From contig CAWJQC010000007.1 in the NCBI GenBank assembly GCA_963844965.1, positions 128,001-192,000 on the forward strand: a stretch of DNA of 64,000 bases. The letters are read 5' to 3'. This document shows positions 1,417 to 54,338 of this stretch, piece after piece (position 1 is the stretch's first letter; the number at the start of each line of letters is the position of its first letter). The translations under genes were made by a program, and so were the position numbers. A model generated the notes under the pieces. It worked only from the letters and a program-made list of their open reading frames with translations. It was not told the DNA's origin and did no database searches. This stretch comes from an uncultured bacterium. GTDB lineage: Bacteria > Patescibacteriota > Minisyncoccia > UBA6257 > 2-01-FULL-56-20.

Positions 1417-2019
1417 ATGTTCAAAGAATTTAAGGGCCGCGAGCTGCAACCTCGGGATATAATGATACGCGAACTGTTGCGGAATTTTGCCGGTTTGAAG
1501 CCTTTTGACAAACTGGAAATTTCTTCCAGCATTGCAGAACTAAAAACTAAAAAAGAGTTCACAGATTTAATTGAGGCCGGATCTACGGAACTTGCCCGCG
1601 ATCTGCTTTTTAACATCGCCAATTCTATGATTAAAAAACGGCTTGAATTGAGAAAAAGTGAACTGGGAAAAATAAAAGAGAAAGGCCCGGCGCCTGCGCC
1701 CGATAGAACGAGATTTCGTGATGACGAACTGGTTGAGAAGCTTATGGGAGTGCTTGAAGAAAAATTTGATGTTTCGGAGAAAGAAAGGTCTGTGCAAATA
1801 CAAAAACTGAGGACTTGGCAGCCGAAAAGCACCGAGGGAATGAGTCATGGCAAGCGTGGGCGCGACACCCCGCATACTGTTCTGCGCAAAAATATGCGCG
1901 GAGGAAAAAAAATATCGGAATTGCCGGTCAATCCAAGTGTTTTACACGCCATTGATGATGCCGAAGATGCCGAAATACAGAAGCGGATTGCCGGCGGCGA
2001 ACAAGAATCGGAAACTTAA
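1417..2019 (+). CDS. hypothetical protein
   Basis: 200-aa ORF with a charged, coiled-coil-like composition and no recognisable motif. Confidence 0.35.
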   Translation: MFKEFKGRELQPRDIMIRELLRNFAGLKPFDKLEISSSIAELKTKKEFTDLIEAGSTELARDLLFNIANSMIKKRLELRKSELGKIKEKGPAPAPDRTRFRDDELVEKLMGVLEEKFDVSEKERSVQIQKLRTWQPKSTEGMSHGKRGRDTPHTVLRKNMRGGKKISELPVNPSVLHAIDDAEDAEIQKRIAGGEQESET

Positions 2020-2020
2020 C

Positions 2021-2701
2021 ATGAGCGAGCGGAACGTCAGTTTAATACTTTTTATAATATCTTTGATTGCGATTTTCACCGCTTTCGCGTTTTACGCCGC
2101 TTTTTACTTCACGACTTCGTTTTTGATTCACGACAGCGTGAATAAAACCTTGCTTTGGAGCGGGCTTTTTGACAGGCAAATTCGGGTTCAGGCGGAGAAA
2201 AAAGTGAACAGCTCCCCCGCCGTTCCTTCGGGTCAGATTGATACCTCAAATTGGAAAACCTACCGCAACGAGAAATACGGATTTGAGGTAAAATACCCGG
2301 CAGAATTAGAGATACGCAGTCCTTCGGAGAGCCCTCTTCCCGGTGAGCTCATGATCCACATTATAGCCGATGACTATAAAAACACCGAAGAGGGACCGGC
2401 TGCGTTTTATGAAGGCAAGGATGAAATTATATGGAAAAGCCGATTGTCTCACGAAACTTCTTATAAAGTTGGCGATCAGTGCCTAGAGGGAGATTGGGGT
2501 TTCGGGACTTACAACAGGGAAGAAATAAATTGCACAGTTTTTAATCTGCATCCGTATGCGATTAAAGAGGAGGTACCCAACATTGTGGAGCTCAGTTTGC
2601 CCACACAAAATTTCGACCTAACAATAGAAATTTATTATAGAAAATACTCTGACGAAGTTTTGCAGCAAATCCTCTCCACGTTCAAGTTTATTCAAACATA
2701 A
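2021..2701 (+). CDS. membrane-anchored hypothetical protein carrying the conserved block DTSNWKTYRNEKYGFEVKYP and ending TFKFIQT
   Basis: ATG at 2021 followed by an N-terminal TM helix. It is a paralog of 5582..6304. Confidence 0.55.
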   Translation: MSERNVSLILFIISLIAIFTAFAFYAAFYFTTSFLIHDSVNKTLLWSGLFDRQIRVQAEKKVNSSPAVPSGQIDTSNWKTYRNEKYGFEVKYPAELEIRSPSESPLPGELMIHIIADDYKNTEEGPAAFYEGKDEIIWKSRLSHETSYKVGDQCLEGDWGFGTYNREEINCTVFNLHPYAIKEEVPNIVELSLPTQNFDLTIEIYYRKYSDEVLQQILSTFKFIQT

Positions 2702-4542: not shown

Positions 4543-4665
4543 AATGTAAAAATCAAAATGAAAAATGACAATGCAAAATGTCAAAATTGATTTTTTTTTA
4601 AAACCTTTACCATTTTTAATTTTTAATTGTCATTTTAAACTTTGATTTTTTAACTTTACATTTTT
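4541..4665. repeat. AT-rich imperfect palindrome between rpe and tkt, built from aaaatgN repeats
   Basis: The left arm (aaaatgtaaaaatcaaaatgaaaaatgacaat) is mirrored on the right as attgtcatttt...tttgatttt...tttacattt. Confidence 0.5.
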
Positions 4666-5526: not shown

Positions 5527-5581
5527 TTAGAAAGTAGTAGGTAGTAAGTAGAAAGTAGAACAGAAACAAAGTAGAAATACA

Positions 5582-6304
5582 ATGGAAACAAGAGAAATAT
5601 TCATGAGCAGGAAAGGTTTCGCGCCAATTTTCGTAATTCTTATCGTTGTCGTTGCTATTGCCGCGGCTGTGATCGCTGGGATTGTTGTAAAAAATACAAC
5701 AAAGAATAGGCAAGCGGTTGAGCAAGCGGCGGCGCCAGCGGAGCAATCGGCGACGGTTTCGAGTACGCCAGCCGCGGCGAGTTCAACAATCGAAGTCGTA
5801 GGTTCCTCGACTGGTTCGACAAGCTCACAGCAAGCAAGTTCGGGACAAGCGTCGGTTGATACCTCTACTTGGCAAACCTACCGCAACGAGGAGTATGGGT
5901 TTGAGGTGAAGTATCCGTCAAACTATGTTGCCGAAGAAATTTCGGATGTAGTTCACGAATTCGATCTGCTCGTCTATCCCCATGGCAATTACGGCGAAGG
6001 TGAGGAAATTCCCGGACTTAACGTATTTATTGATAGTCAGCCGCTCAAACTCATAAAGAACGTCGGAAAGACCTATTCGGATATCGAAGATTTTGTAAAG
6101 AACGAGCCAAGTTGGTTCAAAACGCCTGCGCAGTTGGTAGATTTCAACGGTATCAAGGCCGCGCAATCATTGACCGGTCAGAATAACAGATATGTTCAAT
6201 ACAATTTTATTAACGGCCAGCTGTTCTTTTCGGTGTATGTCGACCAGTTTGTTGATACTGCCGAAATCGAGAACATTGCGCGTACTTTCGAATTCATAAA
6301 ATAA
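5582..6304 (+). CDS. membrane-anchored hypothetical protein, paralog of 2021..2701 (DTSTWQTYRNEEYGFEVKYP ... TFEFIK), inserted between the two transketolase halves
   Basis: N-terminal TM helix, Ser/Thr/Ala-rich linker, and the shared conserved block. Confidence 0.55.
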   Translation: METREIFMSRKGFAPIFVILIVVVAIAAAVIAGIVVKNTTKNRQAVEQAAAPAEQSATVSSTPAAASSTIEVVGSSTGSTSSQQASSGQASVDTSTWQTYRNEEYGFEVKYPSNYVAEEISDVVHEFDLLVYPHGNYGEGEEIPGLNVFIDSQPLKLIKNVGKTYSDIEDFVKNEPSWFKTPAQLVDFNGIKAAQSLTGQNNRYVQYNFINGQLFFSVYVDQFVDTAEIENIARTFEFIK

Positions 6305-6308
6305 AACC

Positions 6309-7325
6309 GTGATTAACCTAGAGGCAAAATTATCCGAAAAAGTTTTTAAGGTAGAGGTGGAGCAAAAGCCGATTCGTGACGGCTACGGCGAGGGTCTGCT
6401 TTTGGCCGGCGAAGCGAACCGGAATGTTGTTGCATTGACCGCCGACCTCACTGAGTCCACGCGCGCGAACGCATTCGCTGAAAAATTCCCCGAAAGATTT
6501 TTTGAGTGCGGCGTTGCCGAACAGAATATGGCGGCGATCGCGGCGGGACTGGGTATTTCCGGAAAAATTCCGTTCATTTCCTCCTTCGCCACATTTTCTC
6601 CGGGGCGTAATTGGGAACAGATTCGGACAACTATCGCTTATAACGATTCCAACGTGAAGATCGCTGGGCATCATACCGGCGTGTCAACCGGTCCCGACGG
6701 CGCGACGCATCAGGCAACGGAGGATATCGCGATGATGAGGACATTGCCCAACATGAAAGTGATTGTGCCGTGCGATGCGATTGAAGCGCGAAAGGCGACG
6801 CTCGCCGCCGCGCATATTTGGGGACCGGTTTACTTGCGTTTCGCGCGCGAAAGAACTCCCATAATGACAACCGAAGCGACTCCGTTCGTGCCTGGCAAAG
6901 CTGAAATTTTTTGGGGAGACCCCTCGGCAAGCTCGGGGCGACGGCTGAAGCCGTCGGTTTTAATCGTCGGTTGCGGCAGTTTGTTGTACAACGCGCTTAT
7001 TGCTGCGCGCGATTTGGAAAGAATAAAAATCGGCACGATAGTTTTGAATTGCCACACGATAAAACCGCTGGATGAGAATAAAATCGCGGAGCTCGCGAAA
7101 AAAATCGGCGCGGTAGTTACCGTTGAGGAGCATCAGATCGCAGGCGGCCTTGGTGGTGCGGTTGCCGAGCTCTTGGCTAAACACGCACCGGTGCCGATGG
7201 AGTTTGTAGGAGTGCGCGACACCTTCGGCGAATCCGGCCCACCCGCGGCGCTTGTAGAAAAGTACGGAATGGGAGTTGATAGTATAAAGGTGGCGATTAG
7301 AAAAGTTTTAAGACGGAAGAAGTAA
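6309..7325 (+). CDS. transketolase, C-terminal subunit
   Basis: FFECGVAEQNM motif and pyrimidine-binding/C-terminal domains; 338 aa. Confidence 0.9.
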   Translation: MINLEAKLSEKVFKVEVEQKPIRDGYGEGLLLAGEANRNVVALTADLTESTRANAFAEKFPERFFECGVAEQNMAAIAAGLGISGKIPFISSFATFSPGRNWEQIRTTIAYNDSNVKIAGHHTGVSTGPDGATHQATEDIAMMRTLPNMKVIVPCDAIEARKATLAAAHIWGPVYLRFARERTPIMTTEATPFVPGKAEIFWGDPSASSGRRLKPSVLIVGCGSLLYNALIAARDLERIKIGTIVLNCHTIKPLDENKIAELAKKIGAVVTVEEHQIAGGLGGAVAELLAKHAPVPMEFVGVRDTFGESGPPAALVEKYGMGVDSIKVAIRKVLRRKK

Positions 7326-7374
7326 TCTGTCTCCGAAAGTTGGGCGAGTAAAAAAACAAATCCCCAGCCGCGTT

Positions 7375-8763
7375 ATGGATAATAATCCTATGCCAGTTCC
7401 GCCGGAATTAAGCTTGCCGCCTCGTCCGCGTTCTTCGCGAGTAAAATGGATTTTAGTCATCCTCATCGTGATTGTAGCGGTCGGCGCCGGTTTTTACTTC
7501 GGGTCAGCGAGGCGCGCTCAGGAACTTTATTCCGGCGGCACCGAGCCCGTCGGATCAATTCAGAAACTCCAAAGTAATTTTTCTTACAAGCCCTGCGTCC
7601 AAGCCAGTTCTTCGGATGCCATCGGCGCCCTCGTGAATGCCAACAATTGCTTTGCTTTCAACGCGTACGAGGATATTAAAGAATCATCCAATGGAAATAT
7701 TTTTTTCTCACCCTACAGTATCTCTGAAGCGGCCGGAATGGTGTATGAAGGAGCACGAGGCGAGACTGCGTTGCAGATACAGAACGTATTTGAGTTTCCC
7801 GATAACGCCGACGCCAGAAAATCGGCACTACTCGCAATATACAACGATTTGAATTCTACAAGCAGCGAGTATGCGTTAAATGTCGCGAATGCGGTGTGGG
7901 TAGAGCGCGATTTTCCGATTCTGGATGATTACTTGAGCACCGTCCGGCAATACTACGGCGGCGAAGCAACGAATCTTGATTTTGCCGGCAATCCCGGGCA
8001 AGCGACGGACGCAGTAAATAAGTGGGTCTCGGACAAAACCAGCGGCAAGATTCCGACGCTTTTTGACGGTCCTCTGAGCCAGCAGGCCAAACTTGTTCTT
8101 ACGGACGCCATTTATTTCAAAGGTTCCTGGGCTCACGCCTTTGAGGCCGGTCAAACGAAACCAGCGACGTTTCGCCCGATGGGAGGAGCGAGCGTTCAAG
8201 TCCCAACAATGCAGTCGGTCGGATCGGATAACGAGTACGCTTACGCCGAAACGGACGACCTCCAATTATTGGAGCTGCCCTATAAAGGGAACAAGTTGGA
8301 TATGGTGATTATTTTGCCGAAGAGCGACGATCCTTCGCACGTTGAAAGTTTGCTCTCGCCGCAAAATCTCACCGACTGGGAAAGGCAGGCTTTTAGCCGG
8401 AAGGTTGACATGTATATTCCGAAATTCACATTTAGCGAAGGATACGATCTTGGTCAGCTGCTTCAGGGGATGGGCATGACACTGGCCTTCGATTCGCATC
8501 CGGGGATAGCCGATTTTTCCGGAATTGACGGCAAAAAAGACCTTTACATTGACGTCGCAGTTCACAAAGCGTTCGTTGCCGTGGACGAAAAAGGAACGGA
8601 GGCTGCCGCGGCGACAGGCTTCGGTTTCGCTCCGACGATGGCTGTTTTCGTGCCGCCTCCGCGAGTAATTTTCCGCGCCGACCACCCGTTTATCTTTTTA
8701 ATTCAGGATGTTGAAAACGGCGACATTCTTTTCTTGGGCAAAGTCGTGGATCCTAAAAGTTAA
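7375..8763 (+). CDS. serpin-family serine protease inhibitor with an N-terminal TM anchor
   Basis: NIFFSPYSISEAAGMVYEGARGET serpin signature, a reactive-centre-loop region (EKGTEAAAATGFGF) and a C-terminal FIFLIQD motif. Confidence 0.8.
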   Translation: MDNNPMPVPPELSLPPRPRSSRVKWILVILIVIVAVGAGFYFGSARRAQELYSGGTEPVGSIQKLQSNFSYKPCVQASSSDAIGALVNANNCFAFNAYEDIKESSNGNIFFSPYSISEAAGMVYEGARGETALQIQNVFEFPDNADARKSALLAIYNDLNSTSSEYALNVANAVWVERDFPILDDYLSTVRQYYGGEATNLDFAGNPGQATDAVNKWVSDKTSGKIPTLFDGPLSQQAKLVLTDAIYFKGSWAHAFEAGQTKPATFRPMGGASVQVPTMQSVGSDNEYAYAETDDLQLLELPYKGNKLDMVIILPKSDDPSHVESLLSPQNLTDWERQAFSRKVDMYIPKFTFSEGYDLGQLLQGMGMTLAFDSHPGIADFSGIDGKKDLYIDVAVHKAFVAVDEKGTEAAAATGFGFAPTMAVFVPPPRVIFRADHPFIFLIQDVENGDILFLGKVVDPKS

Positions 8764-14640: not shown

Positions 14641-14740
14641 CTTACGAAAGTACGAAAACATACGAAATTACGAAAAAGGTGAGCCATGCCATTTCGTACA
14701 TTCGTACAATTTCGTATTTTCGTAAGACAAATTTCGTATG
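14641..14740. repeat. Palindromic element copy A: four direct TACGAAA heptamers, a core ggtgagcc, then four TTTCGTA heptamers
   Basis: Near-identical architecture to the element at 63850..63940. Confidence 0.8.
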
Positions 14741-15767
14741 CCGGAAACAAGGACATCTGAAATTTCGTGGGTTACTCTGTGGCGGATTTTGTTTTTCGCC
14801 TTGCTTGTCGCGGTTCTCTACCTGGGGAGGCAGATTCTTTTGGGGTTATTTCTTGCCATAATTATTTCGTCGGGCATAGAGGTGGTGGTGAATTTTTTTG
14901 AGAGGGTGGGCATACCGAGAACGCTAGGTGTGATTTTGCTTTTTCTTGCCGGCTTGGTGCTCATAATTATTGTCATTTATACGGTTATTCCCCTGATAGT
15001 GGTTGATTTGAATTCCATTTTTTTCGGTTTTGATAAGTCAACGGCCGGCGTCATTTGGACATCACTCGTAGAGTCTGAGAACTTCGCAGTCGGTAAACAC
15101 GCTTCTGAGCGGTCTTTCGCAGCAATTTTTTTCCGGGAGCGCTTCTCCTTTGGATGTTTTTTCAAAGACTCTCGGAAGTTTCGGGCTTGTCATGGCGGTG
15201 ATCGTAAGTTCGTTTTATTTGAGCATAAGCCGCGACGGAGTGGAGAGGTTTATAAAAGCCGTGCTGCCCGCCGATTACGAGAAGTCGGCTTTGAGCATCT
15301 ATGAGCGCTCAAGGAAGAGAATTGGCTTTTGGTTCCGAACGCAGATTTTTTTGAGTCTGCTAATCGGGCTTTCGGTTTGGGGAGTGCTCGTTCTTCTTGG
15401 CGTGAGGCACGCTTTTCTCCTCGGCATAGCGGCGGCTATTTTTGAAATTGTCCCCTATGTGGGCCCAATTCTTTCCGGCGCGCTCGCGGTTCTTATGGCG
15501 CTTTCCACGTCCGTATCCCTCGCGCTTTATACTTTGATAGCATTTCTAATTATCCAGCAACTTGAATCACACGTATTGGTGCCGCTTTTGATGAGGCGCG
15601 CCGTTGGTTTGCATCCGGTGATAGTCATCATCGCTCTCTTAATCGGCATAGAGGTCGGCGGAGTTTTGGGTGCCTTGATCTCCGTTCCGGCAGCCGCGGT
15701 TTTTGAAGAGGCGCTTGACGAATGGTCGCAGAAGAAACGGCCGAAAGAACCGGAACCCGTTATTTAA
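14738..15767 (+). CDS. AI-2E family transporter (PerM/YhhT-like) with an apparent -1 frameshift near 15070
   Basis: Two overlapping ORFs (14738..15304 and 15150..15767) together give a ~343-aa AI-2E protein. The reading frame changes at about 15068-15074. Confidence 0.7.
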
Positions 15768-15875
15768 TGCAATCCGAAAAATCCGAATTTCATCCGAATG
15801 ACCCAAATAGAATAAACAAAAACCATTTGGAGCATTCGGATGTATTCGCAGATTCGGATTGCTGTAGCGAAGCGT

Positions 15876-17276
15876 ATGAAAAAGTTTTACATTACGACGA
15901 CGCTTCCTTATGTGAACGCGCCGCCCCATATCGGTTTCGCTCTGGAGATTATCCAGGCGGATGTCATCGCCCGCTCCCGAAAGCTCGCGGGCGATGATGT
16001 GTTCTTTAATACGGGGACGGACGAGCACGGCTTGAAAGTATATCGCAGAGCGGTGGAAGAAAAAAAAGACCCGCAGGTTTACGTAAATGAATGTGCGGAG
16101 AAGTACGAAGATTTAAAACGTACGCTTGGCGCTGATTACACGAATTTTATCCGCACGACCGATCCCCATCACGTGAATGCCACGCGGGAATTTTGGAGAA
16201 AGTGCGACGAAAACGGTTATATCGAAAAAAAGCTCTATAAGATCAAGTACTGTGTTGGCTGCGAACTGGAAAAAACCGACTCCGAGCTTGAGAACGGCCG
16301 TTGCATAATTCACCCGAATCTTGAGATTGAAATAATAGAGGAAGAAAATTATTTTTTTCAATTCTCCCGGTATCCAGAAGTCCCTCCTCGTGCTTTACGA
16401 AAAATATCCGGATTTTGTTTTGCCAAGCGCAGCGTTTAAATGAGATAAAAAAATTTGTTGAGGGCGGCTTGCAGGATTTCAGCGTTTCGCGCCTCAAAAA
16501 AAAGATGCCGTGGGGCATTTCCGTCCCCGGGGGACGAAGAGCATGTGATGTATGTTTGGTTTGACGCTTTGGTGAATTATGTATCGGCTTTGGGCTGGCC
16601 GGAGAACAAAAAGAAGTTCGCCGATTTTTGGGGGACAGAAGCGGCGCCGAATGCCGTGCAGATCGCGGGAAAAGACAATCTTCGCCAACAGTCGGCAATG
16701 TGGCAAGCGATGCTTATGGCGGCCGGATTGCCCACTTCGCGGCAGATTCTCATACACGGTTTTATTACTAGCGGCGGCAGTAAGATGAGCAAAAGCTTGG
16801 GCAACGTGGCGGACCCGTTCTTTTTGGTCCAAAAATACGGCACGGACGCATTGCGCTACTGGCTACTGCGTGAGATTCCCGCCTTTGAAGACGGAGATTT
16901 TGAGGAAGAAAAATTGCGCGAGCGGTACAATGGCGACCTAGCGAACGGATTGGGAAATTTTGCCGCGCGCGTTTTAACGCTCGGCGCCGGCCTCGGTAAA
17001 GTTTCGGAAGGTTTAAAACCCGATGCCGAGATATCGGGATATATAGAAAAAACAAAAAAGGTGGTTTCGGAAAAAACGGAAGGATTCAAATTCCACGAGG
17101 CGCTTGCCGCGATTTGGGATTTGACCGGCTTCGGCGATTCGTATGTGAATAAGACCGCGCCGTGGGGGATAAAGGATGCGGCGGAAAAAACACAGACAGT
17201 TTTCAATTTGGTAGTGATTTTGGATAATGTGGCGGCGATGCTTCGGCCATTTTTGCCGGGAACGCGCGCAAGATAA
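15876..17276 (+). CDS. metG: methionyl-tRNA synthetase (short form), interrupted by three single-base insertions between 16374 and 16533
   Basis: PYVNAPPHIGF (HIGH) and KMSKS motifs. The frame goes 0, 1, 2, then back to 0, and conserved MetRS sequence (QKSLLVLYEKYPDFVLPSAAF, NEIKKFVEGGLQDFSVSRL, PGDEEHVMYVWFDAL) is recovered in the shifted frames. Confidence 0.85.
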
Positions 17277-18100: not shown

Positions 18101-19073
18101 ATGGACCGTCAATCGGAAAAATCAATTTTTTTTGACGCGCACACGCATGTTCAATTTCAGGCGTTCGCTGGCGATTATAAGGAAGCCGTCGGGCGCGCTT
18201 TGAGTTCGGGCGTCGGCATGGTGAATGTCGGCACACAGAAGGACACCTCGCGGCGGGCCGTGGAAATCGCGCACGAATACGAGAACGAAAAAATTTTCGC
18301 AGCGGTCGGTTTGCATCCGATTCATACCGGTAAATCGTTTCACGACGAGGATGAACTTGGCCTACCGCGGACAGACGCAGATGATACGCAGACAGACGCG
18401 GAAAATTTTCAGCGTAAGTCCGCGTTAAATCCGCATGGGTCGGCGTCTGCTGGCTTCTGGAGCAGGGCGGAGGAATTCGATCATGAGTACTATAAAAAAC
18501 TCGCGCTGGACCAAAAGTTGTGGCGGTAGGGGAATGCGGATTGGACTATTACCGTGCGACAAGCGACATGGGACAAGCGACATGGAATGAAATGAAGGCG
18601 CTAAACAGAGGCAGGTGCTTGGGGCACAGATACAACTTGCGCGGGAAATAAAAAAGCCCTTAATGCTCCACTGCCGAGACGGAAAAAAGTCCGGCACGGG
18701 GCCGGCATTTGATGATTTGGTTAATATTTTAGAGAGTCATGCGGCAGGTGTTCCCTTTGTGAGCCACTCTTTCGTCCGCAATCTCGGGTTGGCGAAAAAA
18801 TTACTTGATTTGGGTTCGTATTTTTCTTTTAACGGCATTATTACATTCACGCACGATTACGATGAAGTTGTGCGTTTTCTGCCGGTGGACAGGATATTGT
18901 CCGAGACAGATGCGCCGTATCTCGCGCCTGTGCCCCATAGGGGCAAACGCAACGAACCGGCGTATGTGGTAGAGGTTGTTAAGAAGATGGCGGAAATAAG
19001 AGGCCTTTCGATTGAAAAGATGGCAGAGCAGATTCGGGAAAATACGGGAAAAATTTTCGGTTTGAGATTTTGA
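18101..19073 (+). CDS. tatD: TatD-family deoxyribonuclease with two frameshifts at about 18513 and 18600 and a perfect 14-bp tandem duplication (18558-18571 / 18572-18585)
   Basis: FDAHTHV, KVVAVGECGLDYYR and PLMLHCRD motifs are found in three different frames. Confidence 0.75.
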
Positions 19074-19150: not shown

Positions 19151-22100
19151 ATGAAGAAGTATAACTTCGGAGAAATAGAGAAAAAGTGGCAGGAGGCGTG
19201 GGAGAAAGAAGAGCTTTACCGTGCCGACGACAAGAGCAAGAGAGAAAAAAAATATGTTCTGATTGAATTTCCGTATCCGTCTGGCGAGGGGCTACACATG
19301 GGGCACCTCCGGCCTTATGTTGCTGGAGACGTTTATAGCCGCCATTTGCGGATGTGCGGATATGAAGTTATGTATCCTATCGGCTGGGACGCGTTCGGAC
19401 TGCCCGCGGAGAACTATGCCATCAAGAACGGAATTCAACCGTCAATCTCAACGGCGCGGAACGTGAAAAATGCGAAGCAGCAGCTCAAAAGCTGGGGGAT
19501 GGGTTTTGACTGGTCGCGCGAGATAAATACGACCGACCCGAATTACTATAAATGGACACAGTGGATATTCCTGCAGCTTTGGAAAGCCGGCCTGGCTTAT
19601 GAAGCCACCGGTCTTATAAATTGGTGCCCGAAGGACAAAACCGGTTTGGCGAATGAGGAGGTAATTAACGGTTGCTGCGAGCGTTGCGGGGCGCTCGTGG
19701 AAAAAAAGGAAATGCGGCAGTGGTACCTCAAAATTACCGCCTACGCCGAAAAACTCTTGGAAGGTTTGAAGACGCTTGATTGGCCGGAAAAAATAAAAGT
19801 TCAGCAGGAAAACTGGATCGGCCGTTCGGAAGGAGCGGAAATAGATTTTGAAGTCGCTGGGCAAAAACCGAAGAAGGTAATATTGATGCATGGGAAAGAT
19901 GCAAATCCTGACGAAAAGTGGTATCCGTGGCTTGCGGAAGAAGTTCAAGAGCGCTGTACTAAATTTATTGCGCCTCGTCTGCCGGAATCCGACAATCCCG
20001 AACTTGAAGCATGGCTTCGTGAAATAGAAAAAGCGAATCCCGATGAAGATACTATTCTTATTGGACATTCTCGCGGTGGGGTGGCGATTTTGAGGTGGCT
20101 GGAAAATCTTAGGTCGGGGAAAGTCGTTAAAAAGGTAATAATAGTAGCTTCGGACAGGGGAGATGCCAAAAAGGAATCGCGGGGTTTTTTTGGCAAACCC
20201 TACGATTTCAAAAAAATACGGTCTCATTGCGACAGTTTTGTTGTTCTACATTCAAGGGACGATGAATGGGTGCCATTTGAAGCGGGTGAATATATTGCCA
20301 AAAATCTGAACGCCAACTTTTTGATTTTTGACGGCAGGGGACACTTCGGAAAAAAATTGCCAAAACAGGAAATTTCCGAACTCGTTGGTGAAATTTTTCC
20401 GAGTATCAAGGTTTTCACCACCCGCCCCGACACGCTTTTCGGTGCGACGTATATGGTTTTGTCGCCGGAACACGAACTTATATTAAAAATTAAAAATCAA
20501 ATATTAAATTGGGGGGAAGTTGAAAAATATATAAAAGTTGCTCAGGGCAAATCAGAGGAAGAACGTATTGCCGAAGGAAAGGAAAAAACCGGCGTGGAGC
20601 TCAAAGGAATCAAGGCGATTAATCCGGCGACGAAGGAAGAAGTTCCCATTTGGGTGGCGGATTATGTGCTTGCGGGATATGGCACGGGCGCGATCATGGC
20701 TGTGCCGGCGCACGACGAACGGGATTTTGAATTTGCGAAGAGGTATAAATTACCGATCAGGGAAGTTATAGCCCCGCTATTTATCGAGAAAGGAGGTCTA
20801 GATGCTTGGAGAGAGACCGGTGTTACAAAAAAACGCAACACAGTCAGTTGTATCATCAAACATTGGTCCGAGGATAAGTACCTTTGTCTGCGCTGGGTGC
20901 ACGATAACTGGCGCGGATTTGTAATCGGTGGCGTGGAAGGTGGCGAAGACATCATAGAAGCTGCCTGTAGGGAAATACGAGAAGAAACCGGATTCAAGAA
21001 TGTAAAATTTATAAAAGTACTTGGAAACGAGATTCACTATAAATTTTTTGCCTCCCATAAAAACGAAAACAGATGGAATGTTGGTCACGGGATTTATTTC
21101 GAACTCTTGAATGGCGAAAGTGATGAAATTTCTGAACAAGAAAAGAAATTGCATAGCGTTGTGTGGATTGATAAGGATAAAGTGGCCGATTTTATCGCCA
21201 ACGACCCCAGCGATTCTTTGTTGTGGGAGCGCCTTAATGGCGTATCGCGGCCGTTTATTGAGGAAGGAGTTCTGGTTGGTTCTGATAAATTCACCGGTAT
21301 GAATTCCGAAAAAGCCAAATGGGAAATTACGAAACTCGTCGGTGGGAAGAAACAAATTCAATATCGCCTGCGCGACTGGGTTTTTTCGCGCCAGCGCTAT
21401 TGGGGCGAGCCGATTCCGCTCGTCCACTGCGCGAAGTGCGGGATTGTTCCCGTGCCGGAAGAGGAATTGCCGCTGAAACTCCCGGAAGTGGAGAAATACG
21501 AACCTACCGGCACCGGCGAATCGCCGCTTGCTGCCGTGGATTCCTGGGTGAATACAAAGTGTCCTGAGTGCGGCGGGAGAGCGAAACGTGAAACTAACAC
21601 CATGCCGCAGTGGGCCGGAAGTTCGTGGTATTACCTCGCATACATAATGCGAGGAATTTCCCCGCCCGCGCCGACGCTTCGGCGGGCAGGCAATTTCCCC
21701 GCCAAAGGCGAGGCTAGCCAAGAGCTACAATTTCCAATTTCCAAATATCAAGAAGCTTTTAGGCATTGGCTGCCGGTTGACGTTTATTTCGGCGGCATGG
21801 AGCATACGACGCTTCATCTTCTTTATTCGCGGTTTTGGCACCAATTTCTCTACGATAAAAAATTCGTGCCGACGCCGGAACCTTATCTGCGTCGCGTGCC
21901 GCACGGGATAATTCTCGGTCCCGACGGCGAGAAGATGTCTAAAAGCCGCGGCAATATCGTGAGTCCCGACGAAATCGTGAAAAATTTTGGAGCGGATTGC
22001 CTCCGCATGTACGAACTATTCCTTGGTCCGCACGAGGCGACGGTTAGCTGGAAAAGCGAGGGCATTTTGGGGATTTCGCGGTTTCTGGAGCGCGTTTGGA

Positions 22101-22610
22101 AATTCTATGGAGTAATCGCGAATAATGCGAACCATGGACAAAATAATGCGAATGTTACAAGAAATTTACAACGGACGATCAAAAAAGATCACTGAAGATA
22201 TTGAAACATTCCACTACAATACTGCCATTAGCGCACTTATGATACTCTTGAACGACCTTGAAAAGACCGGCGCGGGAAAAGAAGTCGGAGAAATATTTTT
22301 GAAACTTCTCGCTCCGTTCGCTCCGCACATAACGGAGGAATTGTGGGGTGGGGCGTTTGGCAAAAAAACTTCCATCCATCGCGAGGCGTGGCCACAATAC
22401 GACGCAAATTTGATAAAAGAGGAAACATTCACGCTCGTGATCCAGGTGAATGGCAAAGTGCGTGACAGCGTGGAGGCGGCCGCGGGCGTAAGCGAATCGG
22501 AAGCGAAAGAGCTGGCTTTGGGCAGGGAAAAAATTAAAAATATTCTCGGCTCGGCAAAACCCAAACGCGTGATCTACGTTCCGAGCAAGTTAATTAATAT
22601 TGTGCTTTAA
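19151..22610 (+). CDS. leuS: leucyl-tRNA synthetase with two in-frame inserted hydrolase domains (an alpha/beta serine hydrolase at about 19870-20410 and a Nudix domain at about 20780-21260); +1 frameshift in the A6 run at 22181-22186 before the anticodon-binding domain
   Basis: HMGH, TTRPDT, YGTGAIMAVPAHDERD and YRLRDWVFSRQRYWGEPIP motifs plus KMSKS form a LeuRS core. The inserts carry the GHSRGG / HSRDDEW / GRGHF triad and the Nudix box GGVEGGEDIIEAACREIREETG. The C-terminal domain continues in ORF 22125..22610. Confidence 0.9.
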
Positions 22611-31233: not shown

Positions 31234-31370
31234 TGCTCTTGAGGGCCGCGTTATTCAAGCTCGAAAAAGTTCGAATCCTTGCCCCCTGCGACTTTTCGTC
31301 GCGTAATCTGAGCTTCTGGAAACATTGAAAAATATAGGGGAACTGTCCCTCGAACGGGTGCACACTCCTG

Positions 31371-31457
31371 CGGAGGGTACAGGATTCGAACCTGTGAGGG
31401 GATTTCTCCCCAACCGCATTTCGAGTGCGGCGCGTTAGACCACTCTGCCAACCCTCC
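31371..31457 (-). tRNA. tRNA-Ser (anticodon CGA)
   Basis: Acceptor ggagggt/accctcc, anticodon arm ccgca-cuCGAaa-tgcgg, long variable arm and T-loop ttcgaat. Confidence 0.85.
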
Positions 31458-32002: not shown

Positions 32003-32089
32003 GGTTGAGCGGGTGGAAAATTAAGTATTATGTATGTGCCGTCCCTTTGTGGGACGGTATTTTTTTGTCTGACTGCTCTGAACAGCGCG

Positions 32090-32189
32090 TTTTGCGACTG
32101 CTCTGCTGTTGCAAAACGCGCGTGGGGTTTTGCGACAAATTACCGATTTGTTGCAATAACCCCCGTTTTGCGACACTTTGTGATATAAT
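32090..32189 (+). promoter_or_regulatory. Three TTTTGCGAC direct repeats at exact 38-bp spacing (32090, 32128, 32166), interleaved with TTGCAA(A/T)AAC repeats and ending in a TATAAT box at 32184-32189, upstream of xer
   Basis: The periodic 9-mer repeats are directly visible. Confidence 0.45.
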
Positions 32190-32196
32190 GGAATCA

Positions 32197-33108
32197 ATGT
32201 CGGAAGTAGAAAATTTGGTTCGGGACTACCTGAATTATTTGGAAATAGAACGGAATCGCTCGCCGAAGACGCGGGAAAATTATGAGCGGTATCTTAGGGA
32301 ATTTTTTAAGTTTTCAAAAGCGAAAACGCCCAGCGACATTACGGAATCCGCCGTGCGGGATTTCCGCATGTACCTCGCTCGCCCCGCCAATCGTGGCGGG
32401 GTAAACCGCAGCATAAAAAAGGTGACGCAAAGTTATTATGTGATAGCCCTGCGTAATTTTTTGAAATATCTCGCGAGGCACGACATAAAAGTTCTGGCGC
32501 CGGAAAAGATAGAGCTTCCCAAGATTCCCGAACGGCAGATTGAAGTTCTGGAATACGGCGACCTGGAACGGTTGCTTGCCGCACCGAAAGGCACGGACCT
32601 CCGCAGCCTGCGCGATAAGGCGATACTGGAACTTTTCTTTTCAACCGGTCTGCGGCTTTCCGAACTGTGCGGTCTTTCGCGTTACATTGACCTCAAGCGC
32701 GGAGAGTTGTCCGTCCGCGGCAAGGGCGACAAGTTGCGCGTCGTCTTCCTCTCCGATTCCGCGAAAAAAGCGATACAGAATTATCTTGATAAGCGGACGG
32801 ACGCCGAAGAGGCGCTTTTCGTGAGTTTAACCAGGGCGGGGAAGGTTATCGGCAAAATAATTCCGCGGGCGGTTGAGAGAATCATAGAACGGCGCGCGCG
32901 CGAAGCCGGCATCGCGAAAAAGATACATCCGCACCAATTGCGGCATTCGTTCGCGACGGATCTGCTCGTGAACGGCGCCGACCTGCGTTCCGTTCAGGAA
33001 CTTTTGGGCCACGCGAACATTTCAACCACACAGATTTATACGCATCTCACGAACAAGGAACTAAGAGAGGTCCACGAGGCGTTCCATGCCCGCCGCAGGA
33101 AAGAATAG
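32197..33108 (+). CDS. tyrosine recombinase, XerC/XerD family
   Basis: HPHQLRHSFATDLL and LLGHANISTTQIYTHL catalytic motifs. Start placed at the ATG downstream of the -10 box. Confidence 0.85.
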   Translation: MSEVENLVRDYLNYLEIERNRSPKTRENYERYLREFFKFSKAKTPSDITESAVRDFRMYLARPANRGGVNRSIKKVTQSYYVIALRNFLKYLARHDIKVLAPEKIELPKIPERQIEVLEYGDLERLLAAPKGTDLRSLRDKAILELFFSTGLRLSELCGLSRYIDLKRGELSVRGKGDKLRVVFLSDSAKKAIQNYLDKRTDAEEALFVSLTRAGKVIGKIIPRAVERIIERRAREAGIAKKIHPHQLRHSFATDLLVNGADLRSVQELLGHANISTTQIYTHLTNKELREVHEAFHARRRKE

Positions 33109-34633: not shown

Positions 34634-34807
34634 TCACGCGCTCGGTCGCCTGAGGCGACCTGTGCTTTTTAAAACCCTCGGTTTTTAATATTTTCCTACA
34701 CGGGGAACCGAGCGCGGTTCCCCGACCCCCTCCGCTGTTCGATTCCCTCAAAACCAGGTAACAAAAGAAAAAGGCGGCCGTCGCCGACCGCCTTTTTCTT
34801 TTGTTCG

Positions 34808-34878
34808 TGGACCTGGGGGGAATCGAACCCCCACCTCTTCCATGCCATGGAAGCGTTCTGCCACTATACTACAGGCCC
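34808..34878 (-). tRNA. tRNA-Ala (anticodon GGC)
   Basis: G3:U70 pair, anticodon arm cttcc-atGGCat-ggaag, T-loop ttcgatt, discriminator A. Confidence 0.8.
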
Positions 34879-35244
34879 ATTGGCAGATTTTGATCTGTTA
34901 TTCTTGAACTCGGGAGAATGTATCGTGTCGTAGATGCTGCCGTTCGGATTGATTATTATCGCCTTTATAACGGTTTCTATTGTTGGGTTGTCTGTTATAG
35001 TTTTGCCGTCTTCATCTTCCTTGCAGATCGGGATTTTATCCATTTTCATTAGGTGGTGGGCGACGCCGTTCATTGAAATAATAAACTGCGTCGGCGTTTT
35101 TTCAATGCCGAATCTATATCCATCCTCTTTCAATTTCGCCGCCACCTTCTCCACGCGTCCATCAATCTCCCTCATCTTTTCCATTCTCTGTCTTTCTAGC
35201 TCTTTTCCTTGCTCGGCAGTTACATATCCGCCGTTTGTTTTCAT
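34864..35244 (-). CDS. hypothetical protein
   Basis: 126-aa ORF whose 3' end overlaps the tRNA 5' end by about 15 nt. Confidence 0.35.
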   Translation of the reverse strand: MKTNGGYVTAEQGKELERQRMEKMREIDGRVEKVAAKLKEDGYRFGIEKTPTQFIISMNGVAHHLMKMDKIPICKEDEDGKTITDNPTIETVIKAIIINPNGSIYDTIHSPEFKNNRSKSANGPVV

Positions 35245-35258
35245 CGTCTTGCACTTAC

Positions 35259-35510
35259 TTATTTTACAGGCTGATTATCCGCGGAGGAAGATTTCTTGCT
35301 GAAAACGTAGAGATACAAAATCTCCAAAATGCCGACCGTGTTTACTACAAGCAAAACAACAAACCAAATTTTACTGCCCAAGTGTGCTGCTCTCCATAGG
35401 GCAAGGCCCTTCCACGCGAGCGACCAGATGACGAGGATGGCGAGGACGAATCCCGCGCCCGCGCTGAGCGCGCCGAAGCCGAACACGGCGCCCAACGAAT
35501 TACTCCACAT
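35259..35510 (-). CDS. small membrane protein
   Basis: 83 aa with two TM helices. Confidence 0.4.
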   Translation of the reverse strand: MWSNSLGAVFGFGALSAGAGFVLAILVIWSLAWKGLALWRAAHLGSKIWFVVLLVVNTVGILEILYLYVFSKKSSSADNQPVK

Positions 35511-35615
35511 ATATTTGTTAATAATGTCCGATGTTTGCGACCTTTGCCTCTCAAGCCATAATCATTTATAGTTTATACGATTCGCCCCCGTAGTTCAACT
35601 TGTTTCGCATTGGTT

Positions 35616-35687
35616 CCCCTTGTAGCTCAACGGATAGAGCAGTCCCGTCCTAAGGGAAAGATGAGGGTTCAATTCCTTCCAAGGGGA
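35616..35687 (+). tRNA. tRNA-Arg (anticodon CCT)
   Basis: Acceptor ccccttg/caagggg, D-stem gctc/gagc, anticodon loop guCCUaa, T-arm gaggg-ttcaatt-ccttc. Confidence 0.8.
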
Positions 35688-35835
35688 CACGGAGTACCAG
35701 TTTCCATTTTGAAGAATCGTAGTTCGTCTTTCCCAGCGGAGCCGCCTTTTTGTTTTCGTGTTAAAATTTACTTATGCCCGGTAGTAGAACTGTGATATCG
35801 GGCAATCAATAAAAATCGCAGTTCACTATCGGACT

Positions 35836-36423: not shown

Positions 36424-38252
36424 ATGTCACCGAGCAACAAGTACAACGAAAGTTATATTTCGCCTTGGGAGGGTGATAAAGACGCCATGGTGGGCAAGAG
36501 CGGAAGGTCTAAATCGGCGAAGCACCGCAACCGCGGCCCCATATTGATCGCTGTGGCGGCGCTTATCGCGGTAATAGCCGTCTTATTTTATTTCGCGTTT
36601 CTGCGGAAACCGGCGGGGCCGGATGTGGGCATGGAATTTCTGAATCCTGGAGCGATACTGGCCGGCGACGGGTTCACTCTCACAGTTTCGATTTCCAATT
36701 ATTCGGACATTGTTCTCCGGGACGCGAGGGTTTCGCTTGTTCTGCCCGACGGCGTTTCGTTTACGGAATCGCAGGCCGACCAGCGCGTTGATGAGAGAAC
36801 CATAGGCGATTTCGGGCCCGGGAGCGTCAATCAACAGTCCTTTAATTTGATAGTTACGAACGGCAGCAATGTATTGAAACATATCCAGGCTAAATTTGAC
36901 TACGCGACGGGCGGGAGCACAAGCGCCGAATTTGAGAGTGTCGGAGAATATGATCTCTCGGTTGGGCAACCGGCAATCGGTTTGAATCTGAGCGCGCCGC
37001 AGAGCATTTTCAACAGCCAGGATTTCACAGTCAAGGTTTCGTACATAAACAACACCAGCCACGATTTCAAAAATTTGCATTTAAACGTTGATTATCCGCC
37101 GATATTCGGATTCAAATCCAGCACGATGCAGCCCGAGTCCGGGAGCAATAATTCTTGGGATTTAGGGACGCTCGCTTCCGGCTCCAGCGGCGTTATATCC
37201 ATAACCGGCAGCGTTGTTGGGCCGGAAAAGTCGTTTTTCAACTTCGGCGCTTCTTTAACATCCGACCTTATGGGTAATACTTACACGATCAATAGCCAGA
37301 CGGCGTCCGTGGCCATTTCCGCGGCGCCGCTCGCGCTTCAAGTCACGCGCCGGAGCACGGCGGATAATGCACTGCATGCCGGTGACCCCGTTACTTACAA
37401 TCTTAATTACGTGAATAATTCCGATGTTACCATGCAGGACGTTACGATAAGCGCCAAACTTACCGGTGAAATGTTTGATTTCACGACGGTTGACACCAAA
37501 GCCTACTTTAATTCGCTGACCGATACGATTAATTGGTTCGCGGCGAACACTCCGGAGCTCCAGAGCATCGCTCCGGGACAGGGAGGGTCGGTTGCTTTCG
37601 CGATCAAAGTCAAAGATTCTTTTCCGATCCGGCTGATGAGCGACAAAAATTACACCTTGCGGCTGGACGCGCAGATTCATCCCCGACGGTTCCGGCAAAT
37701 ACGGCCGCGAACAAGACGGTTTCCATTGCCAGCATTGAAGACAAAGTCGCGGGAAAAATTGATCTGGCGGCGGAAGCGTATTGGCGCGACGCGCAGAGCG
37801 GGATTTTAAATCAAGGGCCTTACCCGCCGAGAGTGGATCAGCCGACGCAGTACACCATACACTGGCGGCTCACAAATTATTCCACAGACGTGGCAAATAT
37901 CACGGTTTCGGCGTATCTGCAGTCAGGCAGCCGGTTCACTGGAGTTGTGAGTTCCAATATCGCGAGTAGCACGCCGACGTACAATCCGGATTCCGGCCTG
38001 GTTACGTGGCAGGTCGGTTCTTTGCCGGCAACGAAAGGGATCACTGGAGCTCCGGCCGAAGCGGTTTTCCAGATAGAAAACACGCCGTCACTCACGCAGG
38101 TCAACCAAAACGTGTCGCTTCTGGGGGAAACGAAAGTTGAGTGGACGGATTCTTTCGTTGGAGCGGTGTACGACGCTACTGCTCCGCCGCTGGACACCTC
38201 CCTTCCGTATGATAAAACGATAACGGATACAGGCAGGACGGTGGAGAATTAG
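36424..38252 (+). CDS. large secreted surface protein with repeated beta-rich (DUF11/CARDB-like) domains; -1 frameshift near the C4 run at 37681-37684
   Basis: N-terminal TM helix and Ser/Thr/Asn-rich repeats. The frame change is recovered by ORF 37533..38252. Confidence 0.55.
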
Positions 38253-50506: not shown

Positions 50507-50586
50507 GGGCCCCGTAGCGCAGATTGGTCAGCGCGCCCGACTGTTCAAGCGGGAGGTCGCTGGTTCGAATCCAGCCGGGCCCACCA
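50507..50586 (+). tRNA. tRNA gene with CCA. The acceptor, D and T arms are canonical (given one extra C in the 5' acceptor), but the anticodon arm is irregular (4-bp stem cccg/cggg with a 10-nt loop actgttcaag). Identity unresolved; Asn-GTT is one possible reading.
   Basis: T-arm gctgg-ttcgaat-ccagc, D-arm gcgc-agattggtca-gcgc, 3' end cgggccc-a-cca. Confidence 0.55.
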
Positions 50587-51455: not shown

Positions 51456-51492
<37 letters not shown>

Positions 51493-51972: not shown

Positions 51973-52486
51973 AGGCAGTGCAACATAGACCCGAAGCCAG
52001 ATGAGCTTGCCTTGGCCAGGGTGAAATCCGCCGAAAGGCGGATGGAGGCCCGAACTGGTGGGTTGTTCAAAACCTTCGGATGAGCTGAGGTAAGGAGTGA
52101 AAAGCTAATCGAATCTGGTAATAGCTGGTTCTCTCCGAAATAGTTTTACGACTAGCGGCGCAGAAAATTTCGCGGGGGTAGAGCACTGGATGATTCGTAA
52201 AGGCCGAAAGGCCGACGAATCAATCAAACTCCGAATACCGCGATTGGAACCTGCGCTAGTCAGACTGCGGGGGCTAAGCTCCGTGGTCGCGAGGGAAAAA
52301 GCCCAGATCGTCAGCTAAGGTCCCTAAATCCATGCTAAGTGTTAAAGGTAGTCTTCTGCCATAAACAGATAGGAGGTTGGCTTAGAGGTAGCCATCCTTT
52401 AAAGAGTGTGTAACAACTCACTATTCGACGGCAGGGGGCGCGAAAATGTACCGGGGCTAAGCATGGTACCGAAGCTACGAATTACC

Positions 52487-52587
52487 TTGTGCTCCGCACA
52501 AGAATTTTCAGGTAATAATTTTCAATTTTCAAATGGTTTGGAAATTGTAAATTGCAAAATTGGAAATTCTCGCGCGCAGCGCGAGGT
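52487..52587 (+). other. Intervening sequence B in 23S helix 45 (about 100 nt): terminal hairpins gtgctccgcac and ctcgcgcgcagcgcgag around an AT-rich palindrome
   Basis: Sits between GAAGCTACGAATTACC and GTAGTGGTAGGAGAGC, the helix-45 IVS site. Confidence 0.65.
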
Positions 52588-52884
52588 AGTGGTAGGAGAG
52601 CATTCGTATTGCACTGAAGCTCGACCCGCGAGGGCGAGTGGAGCGGTACGAAGAGACAATGTTGGTATGAGTAACCACAATCCCAATGAGAAATTGGAAC
52701 CCCGAAAATCCAAGGTTTCCGTGGCACTGGCAATCAACCACGGGTTAGGCGGCCCTAAGCCGATCCCGAAAGGGGCAGGCGATGGACAGACGGTTAATAT
52801 TCCGTCCCTTCCCTATGGTTATCTGCCGCATGACGGAGGAAATAAGCTTGCGTGCCTTATTGGTTTGGCATGGTTTGCCTCAAA

Positions 52885-53033
52885 GCGTGTCTCACTGCGT
52901 TCGACACTATAGTTAAACAATTTTTCAGTTAACGAGTTGCGAGTTAACGAGTTGAAAACAAAAAACCCGTTAACACGTTAACTCTTTAACTCGTTAATAA
53001 TTAATTATTGGGTGGCGAGCGGAGCGAGGCACG
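52885..53033 (+). other. Intervening sequence C (helix 58 region), a member of the CGTGYCTCACTNNCGTTCGRCAC ... GAGCGGNGCGAGGCACG family
   Basis: Closing helix cgtgtctc / gaggcacg; interior gttaacgagtt repeats and their inverse. Confidence 0.65.

Positions 53034-54297: not shown

Positions 54298-54338
<41 letters not shown>

Follow-up and report, generated by a model that had tools for sequence, protein, structure and literature searches.

What are two complete hydrolytic enzymes doing inside an essential aminoacyl-tRNA synthetase (aaRS)? The question is raised by leuS, the gene for leucyl-tRNA synthetase (LeuRS), in a stretch of 64,000 nucleotides from an uncultured bacterium of the Patescibacteriota (positions 128,001 to 192,000 of contig CAWJQC010000007.1, assembly GCA_963844965.1). 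This whole stretch is hereafter the window, and its first letter is position 1 of the coordinates given here. The editing domain CP1 of this LeuRS houses, in frame, a YdeN/RBBP9-type serine hydrolase (guest 1) and a Nudix hydrolase (guest 2). We find that such predicted nested designs recur across Patescibacteria, and we propose, with moderate confidence, that the guests would act as tethered accessory hydrolases functionally linked to LeuRS. An initial annotation of the window, made from the letters alone, had likewise recognized a LeuRS with two in-frame hydrolase inserts, and this part of its interpretation stands, whereas it overlooked a break in the reading frame, placed outside the known LeuRS architectures a design that is not unique, and suggested a local elaboration of Nudix enzymes that the comparisons below do not support. 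The features of the gene are as follows.

19151..22195, forward strand: leuS open reading frame 1 (ORF1), 1014 codons plus TGA; catalytic core, CP1 with the two nested guests, and KMSKS, with a premature end at a frame change
19295..19306, forward strand: HMGH (HIGH-type signature), residues 49-52
19862..20404, forward strand: guest 1, alpha/beta serine hydrolase, residues 238-418, nested at the CP1 entry strand three residues before TTRPDT
20069-20071, 20261-20263 and 20342-20344, forward strand: guest 1 catalytic triad Ser307, Asp371 and His398, with the HG oxyanion motif at 19889-19894
20405..20773, forward strand: native CP1 editing core, residues 419-541, with TTRPDT (residues 423-428) at 20417-20434 and AVPAHD (residues 517-522) at 20699-20716
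20774..21250, forward strand: guest 2, Nudix hydrolase, residues 542-700, nested in a variable CP1 loop
20927-20995, forward strand: Nudix box GGVEGGEDIIEAACREIREETGF, residues 593-615, a perfect GX5EX7REUXEEXGU
21662..21736, forward strand: filler PPAPTLRRAGNFPAKGEASQELQFP specific to the query leuS, 24-25 residues, GC-rich (0.65)
21932..21946, forward strand: KMSKS loop, residues 928-932
22125..22610, forward strand, +1 frame: ORF2, LeuRS anticodon-binding and C-terminal domain, functional part from about 22184
22181-22186, forward strand: A6 homopolymer, site of a +1 change of frame; with one A removed the canonical ...TIKKITEDIE... returns

The host protein is recognizable by every measure applied. 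ORF1, which the initial annotation had described as a 1014-codon leuS frame with HMGH, TTRPDT, AVPAHD and KMSKS, is present as such and scores 852.9 bits against the TIGR00396 leuS_bact profile, above the curated equivalog cut-off of 548.4, which places it in that family. Its product aligns strongly with the LeuRS structures from Thermus thermophilus, Escherichia coli and Neisseria gonorrhoeae, the CP1 editing core matches PF13603 of Pfam with 193.9 bits, and the H.GH, KMSKS, TTR.DT and AVPAHD motifs are each kept in at least 90% of 120 homologues. A full-length AlphaFold2 model built from a 58-sequence alignment (predicted local distance difference test, pLDDT, 85.8; predicted template-modelling score 0.76) has both guests confidently folded as separate domains and matches LeuRS 1h3n in Foldseek with an E-value of 9e-64. 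Alignment to T. thermophilus LeuRS reveals that the leucine-specific domain (about residues 580-636 of that protein) is missing, with GPDGE in its place; the LeuRS of Mycoplasma mobile has GKDG at this position and is active (PMC3643597). The 24-25-residue filler is nearly absent among homologues, standing where a RY.DP.N.KEF... stretch is usual, and residues 838-856 within it form the sole disordered part of the model (pLDDT below 50); the region also holds AATTTCCCCGCC(N25)AATTTCCCCGCC as a direct repeat, besides a short palindrome. The query is a genuine, probably functional bacterial-type LeuRS of an ultra-small bacterium with a Patescibacteria genome of the candidate phyla radiation (CPR) type.

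Profile searches and structure prediction, the route that the initial annotation had pointed to, support the assignment of both inserts, with an RBBP9/YdeN-type hydrolase with an intact triad confined to residues 238-418 and a Nudix hydrolase with a canonical box to residues 542-700. Guest 1, which takes the place of about two residues of T. thermophilus LeuRS (240-243), contains a PF06821 Ser_hydrolase match at residues 244-400 (59.9 bits against a gathering cut-off of 22) and matches human RBBP9 (2qs9/9fcr, E-value 1e-19) and Bacillus subtilis YdeN (1uxo, 2e-14) with the triad in register: its GHSRGG, HSRDDEW and GRGHF align to GHSSGA, GSTDDPF and DCGHF of RBBP9, whose triad is Ser75/Asp138/His165. 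Among the homologues with a hydrolase insert, Ser307 is conserved in 63 of 64, Asp371 in 59 of 64 and His398 in all 64. In the full-length model, residues 240-418 alternate between strand and helix, as in an alpha/beta-hydrolase fold, with block pLDDT values of about 74-95.

Guest 2 replaces about 10 residues of T. thermophilus LeuRS (362-373) and matches PF00293 NUDIX at residues 582-678 (41.6 bits against a gathering cut-off of 21.1). The Glu and Arg residues of its Nudix box are kept in 54-58 of 58 homologues. Its own AlphaFold model has a pLDDT of 95.1, and Foldseek retrieves 2azw and 3i7u at probability 1.00 with template-modelling scores of 0.83-0.84 normalised to the target, the closest solved folds being an Enterococcus faecalis MutT/Nudix protein, Aquifex Ap4A (diadenosine tetraphosphate) hydrolase, E. 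coli RppH, NudI and MutT1. In Ap4A hydrolases a specificity tyrosine lies in the X-loop, Tyr87 in human NUDT2 (PMC5389931); guest 2 has aromatic residues at +15 to +18 past the box (Tyr630 and Phe632/633, consensus FY), possible counterparts of the X-loop tyrosine. A near-repeat of 23-26 nucleotides flanks guest 2, with CCGCTATTTATCGAGAAAGGAGGTCT at 20774-20799 and CCG, a three-position gap and TTTATTGAGGAAGGAGTTCT at 21251-21273 (peptides PLFIEKGGL and PFIEEGVL); it may have been left by the insertion event or by microhomology. A target-site duplication as a general feature of the guests was considered and rejected, the near-repeat being without counterpart in other homologues.

The initial annotation held that neither insert belonged to any known LeuRS architecture. 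A homology search returned 8000 LeuRS sequences, and we compared the architectures of the best 120 (from NCBI, JGI, ENA, Logan and MGnify). In these, core segments are of near-constant length and extra material is confined to four sites.

Site 0: query residues 170-235
Site 1: 8 residues, or about 185 when filled
Site 2: about 16-20 residues, or about 162 when filled
Site 3: query residues 740-830

Fourteen of the 120 are plain, 34 have the hydrolase only, 29 the Nudix domain only and at least 17 both, besides larger forms with up to three Nudix or two Ser_hydrolase domains each by Pfam. Nudix domains were found at sites 0, 1 and 2 and Ser_hydrolase domains at sites 1, 2 and 3, with HAD_2, Ham1p_like, Methyltransf_23 and DUF559 (Pfam) as occasional guests. 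The homologues come from Doudna-, Woese-, Kaiser-, Taylor-, Nomura-, Moran-, Falkow-, Giovannoni- and Berkelbacteria and from Paceibacterota. In a GTDB scan with one genome per species, the Nudix subfamily of guest 2 is encoded by at least 185 species, and in 71 of the 80 best loci it is flanked by CP1 and by the LeuRS core downstream of it; the contexts seen for this subfamily are free-standing proteins (about 160 residues, many) or LeuRS only. The nested-hydrolase design is, by these comparisons, common and modular in Patescibacteria and widespread in public LeuRS sequences, and an automatic JGI label already reads 'leucyl-tRNA synthetase/8-oxo-dGTP pyrophosphatase MutT/predicted alpha/beta hydrolase' (NCBI: 'alpha/beta fold hydrolase'). 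We found no description of hydrolase or Nudix inserts in LeuRS in the searchable literature, where the design is apparently undescribed. An assembly chimera was rejected as the source of the inserts because the same nested architecture recurs in many independent assemblies, dozens to hundreds of them.

An exhaustive HMMER search with a profile of the hydrolase insert yielded 371 cluster representatives at E<=1e-30, of which the best 150 were classified: 83 are free-standing (about 180 residues; 260 or shorter), 43 lie in LeuRS and 24 in other contexts. Among the five informative loci sampled around top-scoring free-standing hydrolases, there are four in which the hydrolase gene immediately precedes leuS, on the same strand (L088, L091, L092 and L093). 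At L088 it lies 6 nucleotides from a plain leuS of 809 residues, the hydrolase protein being seen on 11 contigs; at L091 the downstream leuS is again plain, and at L093 it carries a nested Nudix domain. L092 (positions 4001-8549; GCA_020049755.1) is an overlapping operon of two hydrolases, a YbaK-like tRNA_edit gene, Ham1 and an archaeal-type leuS (TIGR00395, 750 bits), and is a candidate for a compact cluster of LeuRS accessory genes. The fifth hydrolase adjoins a Methyltransf_23-type gene, a family that also occurs as a LeuRS guest and as a fusion partner of the hydrolase. Fusion in some genomes combined with conserved adjacency in others is a classic sign of functional association, and the nesting of the hydrolase in some LeuRS together with its position upstream of leuS elsewhere supports such an association. 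In a further operon (L083), pheS, NYN, a separate Ser_hydrolase and HIT precede a pheT with a nested hydrolase; the free hydrolase was considered as the source of the nested copy and rejected at 35% identity.

With respect to mechanism, we propose that the guests act as tethered accessory hydrolases outside the LeuRS catalytic cycle. The RBBP9/YdeN-type domain would most likely hydrolyse an alpha-aminoacyl ester or amide with a free alpha-amine, candidate substrates being mis-aminoacylated or stray aminoacyl-tRNA, aminoacyl-nucleotides, or peptides that supply hydrophobic amino acids; alternatively, it could be an aminopeptidase that feeds hydrophobic amino acids to the synthetase of an auxotroph. 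Aminoacyl-tRNA and aminoacyl-nucleotides are alpha-aminoacyl esters or anhydrides with a free amine. RBBP9 is stated to activate the valyl ester prodrug valacyclovir (Shenoy 2020, as cited in PMC7730578). Since RBBP9 handles a valyl ester and aminoacyl-tRNA has an ester of this kind, a tethered or co-expressed deacylase or esterase is chemically plausible. The Nudix domain, with its Ap4A hydrolase/RppH-like fold, most likely would hydrolyse a dinucleoside polyphosphate or other nucleotide by-product and could thus clear the dinucleoside polyphosphates made by the synthetase. In genomes with a plain LeuRS, the same job would be done in trans by the hydrolase gene directly upstream of leuS. The guests are probably linked to translation quality control or clean-up. 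The initial annotation had suggested a proofreading or product-clearing module, and for the serine hydrolase this idea gains real, if comparative, support from the adjacency to leuS in four of five loci; it is weakened by the nesting of the hydrolase in UvrB, SecA, Der and TsaD as well, and by the position of the free-standing Nudix relatives away from aaRS genes.

Several observations weigh against a dedicated LeuRS function. The aromatic aminopeptidase pocket of RBBP9 comprises Tyr99, Leu103, Phe140, Leu141 and Glu108 (PMC8866121); in the alignment this specificity pocket is not kept in guest 1 (Tyr99 to Val, Leu103 to Arg, Glu108 to Lys), so that substrate specificity is not transferable from RBBP9 and that of guest 1 probably differs. 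Guest 2 is about 18-20% identical to Ap4A hydrolase, RppH, MutT1 and NudI alike, and no subtype is preferred. The sample of neighbourhoods is small (five informative loci) and was seeded with LeuRS-derived profiles, and none of three free-standing Nudix relatives adjoins an aaRS gene. The hydrolase hosts UvrB, SecA, Der/EngA, TsaD and Fmt have no obvious link to LeuRS, and the lineage of the query hydrolase is shared with the guests of UvrB, PheRS-beta and Fmt. Finally, the guest loops of plain relatives hold meaningless low-complexity fillers, as if the sites were simply permissive.

A more specific version of the LeuRS-linked reading can be put forward only tentatively. Under it, the YdeN/RBBP9-type hydrolase, the Nudix subfamily, Ham1 and the YbaK-like deacylase would form a guild, a previously unrecognised quality-control or clean-up system centred on LeuRS that operates either in cis (within CP1) or in trans (upstream of leuS), with bacterial- or archaeal-type LeuRS, in ultra-small prokaryotes; the hydrolase would then be a new family of enzymes that edit aminoacyl esters, on aminoacyl-tRNA or aminoacyl-nucleotides, and the Nudix enzyme would clear dinucleoside polyphosphates made by LeuRS.

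The alternative that survives best, although we consider it rather unlikely, is neutral piggy-backing, whereby small housekeeping enzymes lodged in permissive CP1 loops would gain constitutive expression in a tiny genome without any tie to leucylation. The host range of the hydrolase taken alone leads to just this view, of nesting in permissive loops without a LeuRS-specific role: the subfamily is nested in UvrB, AlaRS, PheRS-beta, SecA, Fmt, Der/EngA and TsaD (P0166, P0175, P0187, P0152, P0213, P0231 and P0172; loci L081-L084), with the UvrB and PheRS-beta hosts being intact genes on long contigs, and also occurs in fusions with Ham1, methyltransferases, peptidase S51 and other alpha/beta hydrolases. 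The nested unit amounts in every host to the entire stand-alone protein (positions about 2-183 of the 184 of the hidden Markov model) and has no linkers. The subclade of the query hydrolase comprises free-standing proteins (identity 0.57; one cluster member is annotated in Ca. Spechtbacterales) and guests of PheRS-beta (0.49), UvrB (0.48) and Fmt (0.45); with other guests at site 1 of LeuRS the query hydrolase shares a median identity of 0.27. Whole-enzyme nesting in housekeeping proteins is, from these predicted architectures, a general phenomenon. Piggy-backing also accommodates the unrelated guests (HAD, Ham1, methyltransferase, DUF559) at the same LeuRS sites, the low-complexity fillers in the same loops of plain relatives, the existence of both guests as separate genes elsewhere and the lack of aaRS linkage among free Nudix relatives. 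It does not account for the repeated capture of the same two families, at four LeuRS sites and from at least two distant hydrolase lineages, nor for the position of four of five informative free hydrolases directly upstream of leuS, including an archaeal-type leuS, nor for the co-occurrence of the hydrolases with YbaK-like, HIT and Ham1 genes.

The history of the guests in the query gene bears on another alternative. All core segments, including the CP1 piece between the guests, are closest to the plain LeuRS P0011 and P0008 (identity 0.76-0.88), and CP1 between the guests is 87% identical to that of P0011. Guest 1, in contrast to the core, is closest to the guests of distant LeuRS proteins (P0003 at 0.59, P0033 and P0028) and guest 2 to those of another set (P0017 at 0.50, P0105 and P0055; range 0.48-0.50), while P0002, the nearest dual-insert LeuRS by core, has guests 30-36% identical to those of the query. 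Across the family, guest and core identities are uncorrelated (Spearman 0.24 and 0.03). The G+C content at third codon positions (GC3) is 0.39 in guest 1 (z -5.1) and 0.45 in guest 2 (z -3.4), whereas the core ranges over 0.53-0.60 and nine other ORFs average 0.58. Because the core is closest to plain LeuRS, the relatives of the two guests differ and guest GC3 is low, the guests entered a native CP1 separately, from different sources. A single recombination tract bringing in a foreign CP1 with both guests was rejected, given the native CP1 and the different nearest relatives of the guests. So was a recent duplication of the other Nudix genes of the window: the two genes that the initial annotation had taken as signs of lineage-specific Nudix elaboration are distant paralogues with 21-36% identity. 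One of the two, at 43468-44395, encodes an N-terminal domain of about 170 residues of no assigned family fused to a Nudix domain, the latter 36% identical to guest 2 over 69 residues.

These observations could be taken to indicate a selfish in-frame cassette, that is, guests that would spread among conserved essential genes, resembling inteins in host range but without splicing, would be exchanged between leuS alleles through recombination in the conserved flanks and would simply be tolerated. The decoupling of guest phylogeny from that of the host core, the atypically low guest GC3, the sporadic distribution among close relatives and the insertion of whole-protein units without linkers into conserved housekeeping proteins all fit this explanation, as do the near-repeat around guest 2 and the LeuRS P0082. 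In that protein, residues 253-583 at site 1 consist of a degenerate hydrolase followed by a DUF559/REase_MTES_1575 endonuclease-like domain, the sole hint of a guest-mobilising nuclease. We nevertheless regard a selfish cassette as improbable: selfish spread alone would not need the strong conservation of catalytic residues; an endonuclease, transposase or conserved terminal repeats are not generally found with the guests; the near-repeat has no counterpart in other homologues; the nearest guest relatives, at about 50-63% identity, give no sign of recent spread; and the linkage to leuS in operons is left unexplained.

An intein in the strict sense was rejected on junction residues and on the absence of a Hint domain. 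No Hint or intein Pfam match was found in the leuS product. Guest 1 runs from QKPKK... (after ...EVAG) to ...IFPS (before IKVFTT...) and guest 2 from PLFIE... (after ...VIA) to ...GVSR (before PFIEE...). The residues characteristic of inteins (Cys, Ser or Thr at the N-terminal junction; His-Asn and a nucleophile at the C-terminal junction) are absent here and at the junctions in seven other host proteins, in agreement with the initial annotation, which had noted no intein boundary motifs.

The initial annotation had treated 19151-22610 as a gene in one frame, which is not the case: ORF1 stops at TGA 22193-22195, and the anticodon-binding and C-terminal domain is found only in the +1 frame, becoming contiguous with ORF1 once one A is removed from the A6 run. 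ORF2 matches PF08264 Anticodon_1 (Pfam) with 80.7 bits and after repair aligns to residues 637-875 of T. thermophilus LeuRS. Dropping one A yields ...TIKKITEDIETFHYNTAISALM... / ...NLQRTIKKITEDIETFHYNTAISALM..., in line with the family consensus, which in 58 homologues reads R.LHK.IKKV.EDIE.F.FNTAISA.MI at the break. The repaired LeuRS has 1152 residues, with 1115-1160 expected from dual-insert homologues. Since the public NCBI and ENA records hold the identical truncated product of 1014 residues, the frame shift belongs to the deposited assembly. It is most likely a sequencing or assembly indel rather than biology, because metG, a tatD-like gene and the Nudix gene are also broken, mostly at A-runs. 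In metG (15840-17276) all three frames are used around A-runs near 16380-16510, which points to indels rather than recoding, and an alternative genetic code, considered on account of an in-frame stop in this gene, was rejected for the same reason. The tatD-like gene (18101-19073) needs two shifts, near 18510 and 18600, and the Nudix gene 43468-44395 shifts within its own Nudix box, where REIREETG returns if one T is removed near 44150-44190. Overlapping same-strand ORF pairs (1417..2019/1847..2701, 14738..15304/15150..15767 and 36424..37809/37533..38252) may represent further breaks. The several broken genes, with an indel density of about 1 per kb in the essential genes metG and leuS, mostly at A-runs, suggest an error-prone assembly, possibly from long reads. 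A programmed frameshift at the A6 run is unlikely, given the +1 shift needed, the short run, the lack of a recognisable stimulatory context and the similar breaks nearby. That the inserts are assembly chimeras or the frame-shifted leuS a decaying copy is very improbable, for although the frame change cuts the protein before the anticodon-binding domain and several neighbouring genes are also broken, more than 70 independent assemblies of different sources share the nested architecture, all catalytic motifs are preserved along the 1014 codons and the only break falls at a homopolymer, the AlphaFold2 model is coherent, and indels at this density, mostly at A-runs of essential genes, are better explained by sequencing error than by decay.

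Fillers are a further class of inserted material at these sites. The empty LeuRS sites of P0008 and P0011 hold the low-complexity fillers RTNAEQTRNGADKIQRKSALSQRSSAS, RMNADNKLINADKNQHKSAINQHESA and RTDADNRADLRGN, from which it follows that these LeuRS loops are general insertion hot spots. Fillers of the same kind occur in tatD, where 18366-18450 is an in-frame low-complexity stretch, PRTDADDTQTDAENFQRKSALNPHGSASAG, akin to RTDADN..., INADKNQHKSAINQHESA and ADKIQRKSALSQRSSAS at LeuRS sites 1 and 2 of P0008/P0011. The short fillers resemble a family of small DNA elements inserted in frame, comparable to Rickettsia palindromic elements. That they are repeat elements found no support in the window, where no second copy was found and hairpin z-scores were not significant (-1.6 for the tatD filler).

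Other features of the window can be noted briefly. The 23S rRNA gene at 50905-54743 spans 3839 nucleotides against a model of 2925, which leaves an insertion or insertions of about 900 nucleotides, with an ORF (52406..52912) inside; insertions in rRNA genes are typical of CPR. Two tRNAs 5' of it, at 50508-50586 and 50718-50788, have odd anticodon loops according to ARAGORN (a 4-nucleotide 'gttc' and a 2-nucleotide 'gc'), whereas Rfam scores both as tRNA; they may reflect the same indel errors or be unusual tRNAs. A tyrosine recombinase of the phage integrase family lies among tRNA genes for Ser-CGA, Ala-GGC and Arg-CCT (32005-33108, 31370-31457, 34807-35688), a region that may be an integrated element. 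Furthermore, 7375-8763 encodes a serpin of full length (PF00079, 357 bits), extended at its N terminus by about 88 residues, in a CPR-type genome.

The fidelity of aaRS and the signalling nucleotides derived from them, such as Ap4A, are central topics in which new editing or clearing factors are rarely found; here an essential synthetase carries, or is linked in operons to, two enzyme families across a very large and poorly understood part of the bacteria. Should the hydrolase prove to be a deacylase of aminoacyl esters, it would represent a new class of editing factor acting in cis or in trans. If the link is one of co-expression only, we would be left with a striking, recurrent nesting of whole enzymes in the loops of essential proteins of reduced genomes (LeuRS, AlaRS, PheRS-beta, UvrB, SecA, Der and TsaD). 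There are practical consequences as well, for annotation, where labels such as 'alpha/beta fold hydrolase' are given to these proteins, for the alignment of phylogenomic markers and for the understanding of domain insertion.

The system can be set against several known ones. With bacterial-type LeuRS (TIGR00396; T. thermophilus 1H3N/2BYT, E. coli 4AQ7, N. gonorrhoeae 7NU4) the query shares HIGH, KMSKS, the ZN1 region, CP1 with its T-rich and AVPAHD motifs, the overall fold and, after frame repair, the anticodon-binding and C-terminal domains, whereas it differs by two whole enzymes in CP1 loops, by the disordered 24-residue filler and by the replacement of the leucine-specific domain with GPDGE (compare GKDG in M. 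mobile LeuRS, PMC3643597). Guest 1 resembles RBBP9 and YdeN (PF06821; 2QS9, 9FCR, 1UXO) as an alpha/beta-hydrolase of about 180 residues with a Ser-Asp-His triad and an HG oxyanion motif, but sits nested in another protein and does not keep the pocket residues Tyr99 and Leu103. Guest 2 has the canonical Nudix box and fold in common with Ap4A-hydrolase/RppH/MutT enzymes (PF00293; 3I7U, 1F3Y, 4S2X, 2AZW), whereas its low identity to characterised members sets it in a subfamily of its own with the signature EETGYKN...FYA.HK..NR. Like inteins, the guests are in frame, occur in conserved housekeeping hosts, are sporadically distributed and have a phylogeny decoupled from that of the host; unlike inteins, they lack a Hint domain and junction nucleophiles and are enzymes with conserved active sites, presumably kept in the mature protein. 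Rickettsia palindromic elements, which Ogata and colleagues reportedly described in 2000 as in-frame selfish DNA inside protein-coding genes, resemble the short in-frame fillers in surface loops (leuS, tatD and the empty sites of P0008/P0011); the comparison covers these short fillers only, which have no repeated copies in the window, and not the two enzyme guests. A parallel is offered by the aaRS with accessory hydrolases in cis or in trans (YbaK/ProX/AlaX trans-editing factors as against fused editing domains; NCBIfam NF040702 'ileS_w_GNAT'): in both cases the module is either fused or encoded separately in the synthetase operon. To our knowledge, neither PF06821 nor PF00293 is a known partner family of aaRS, and the LeuRS guests, which come from these two families, are nested inside an existing editing domain rather than appended to the synthetase.

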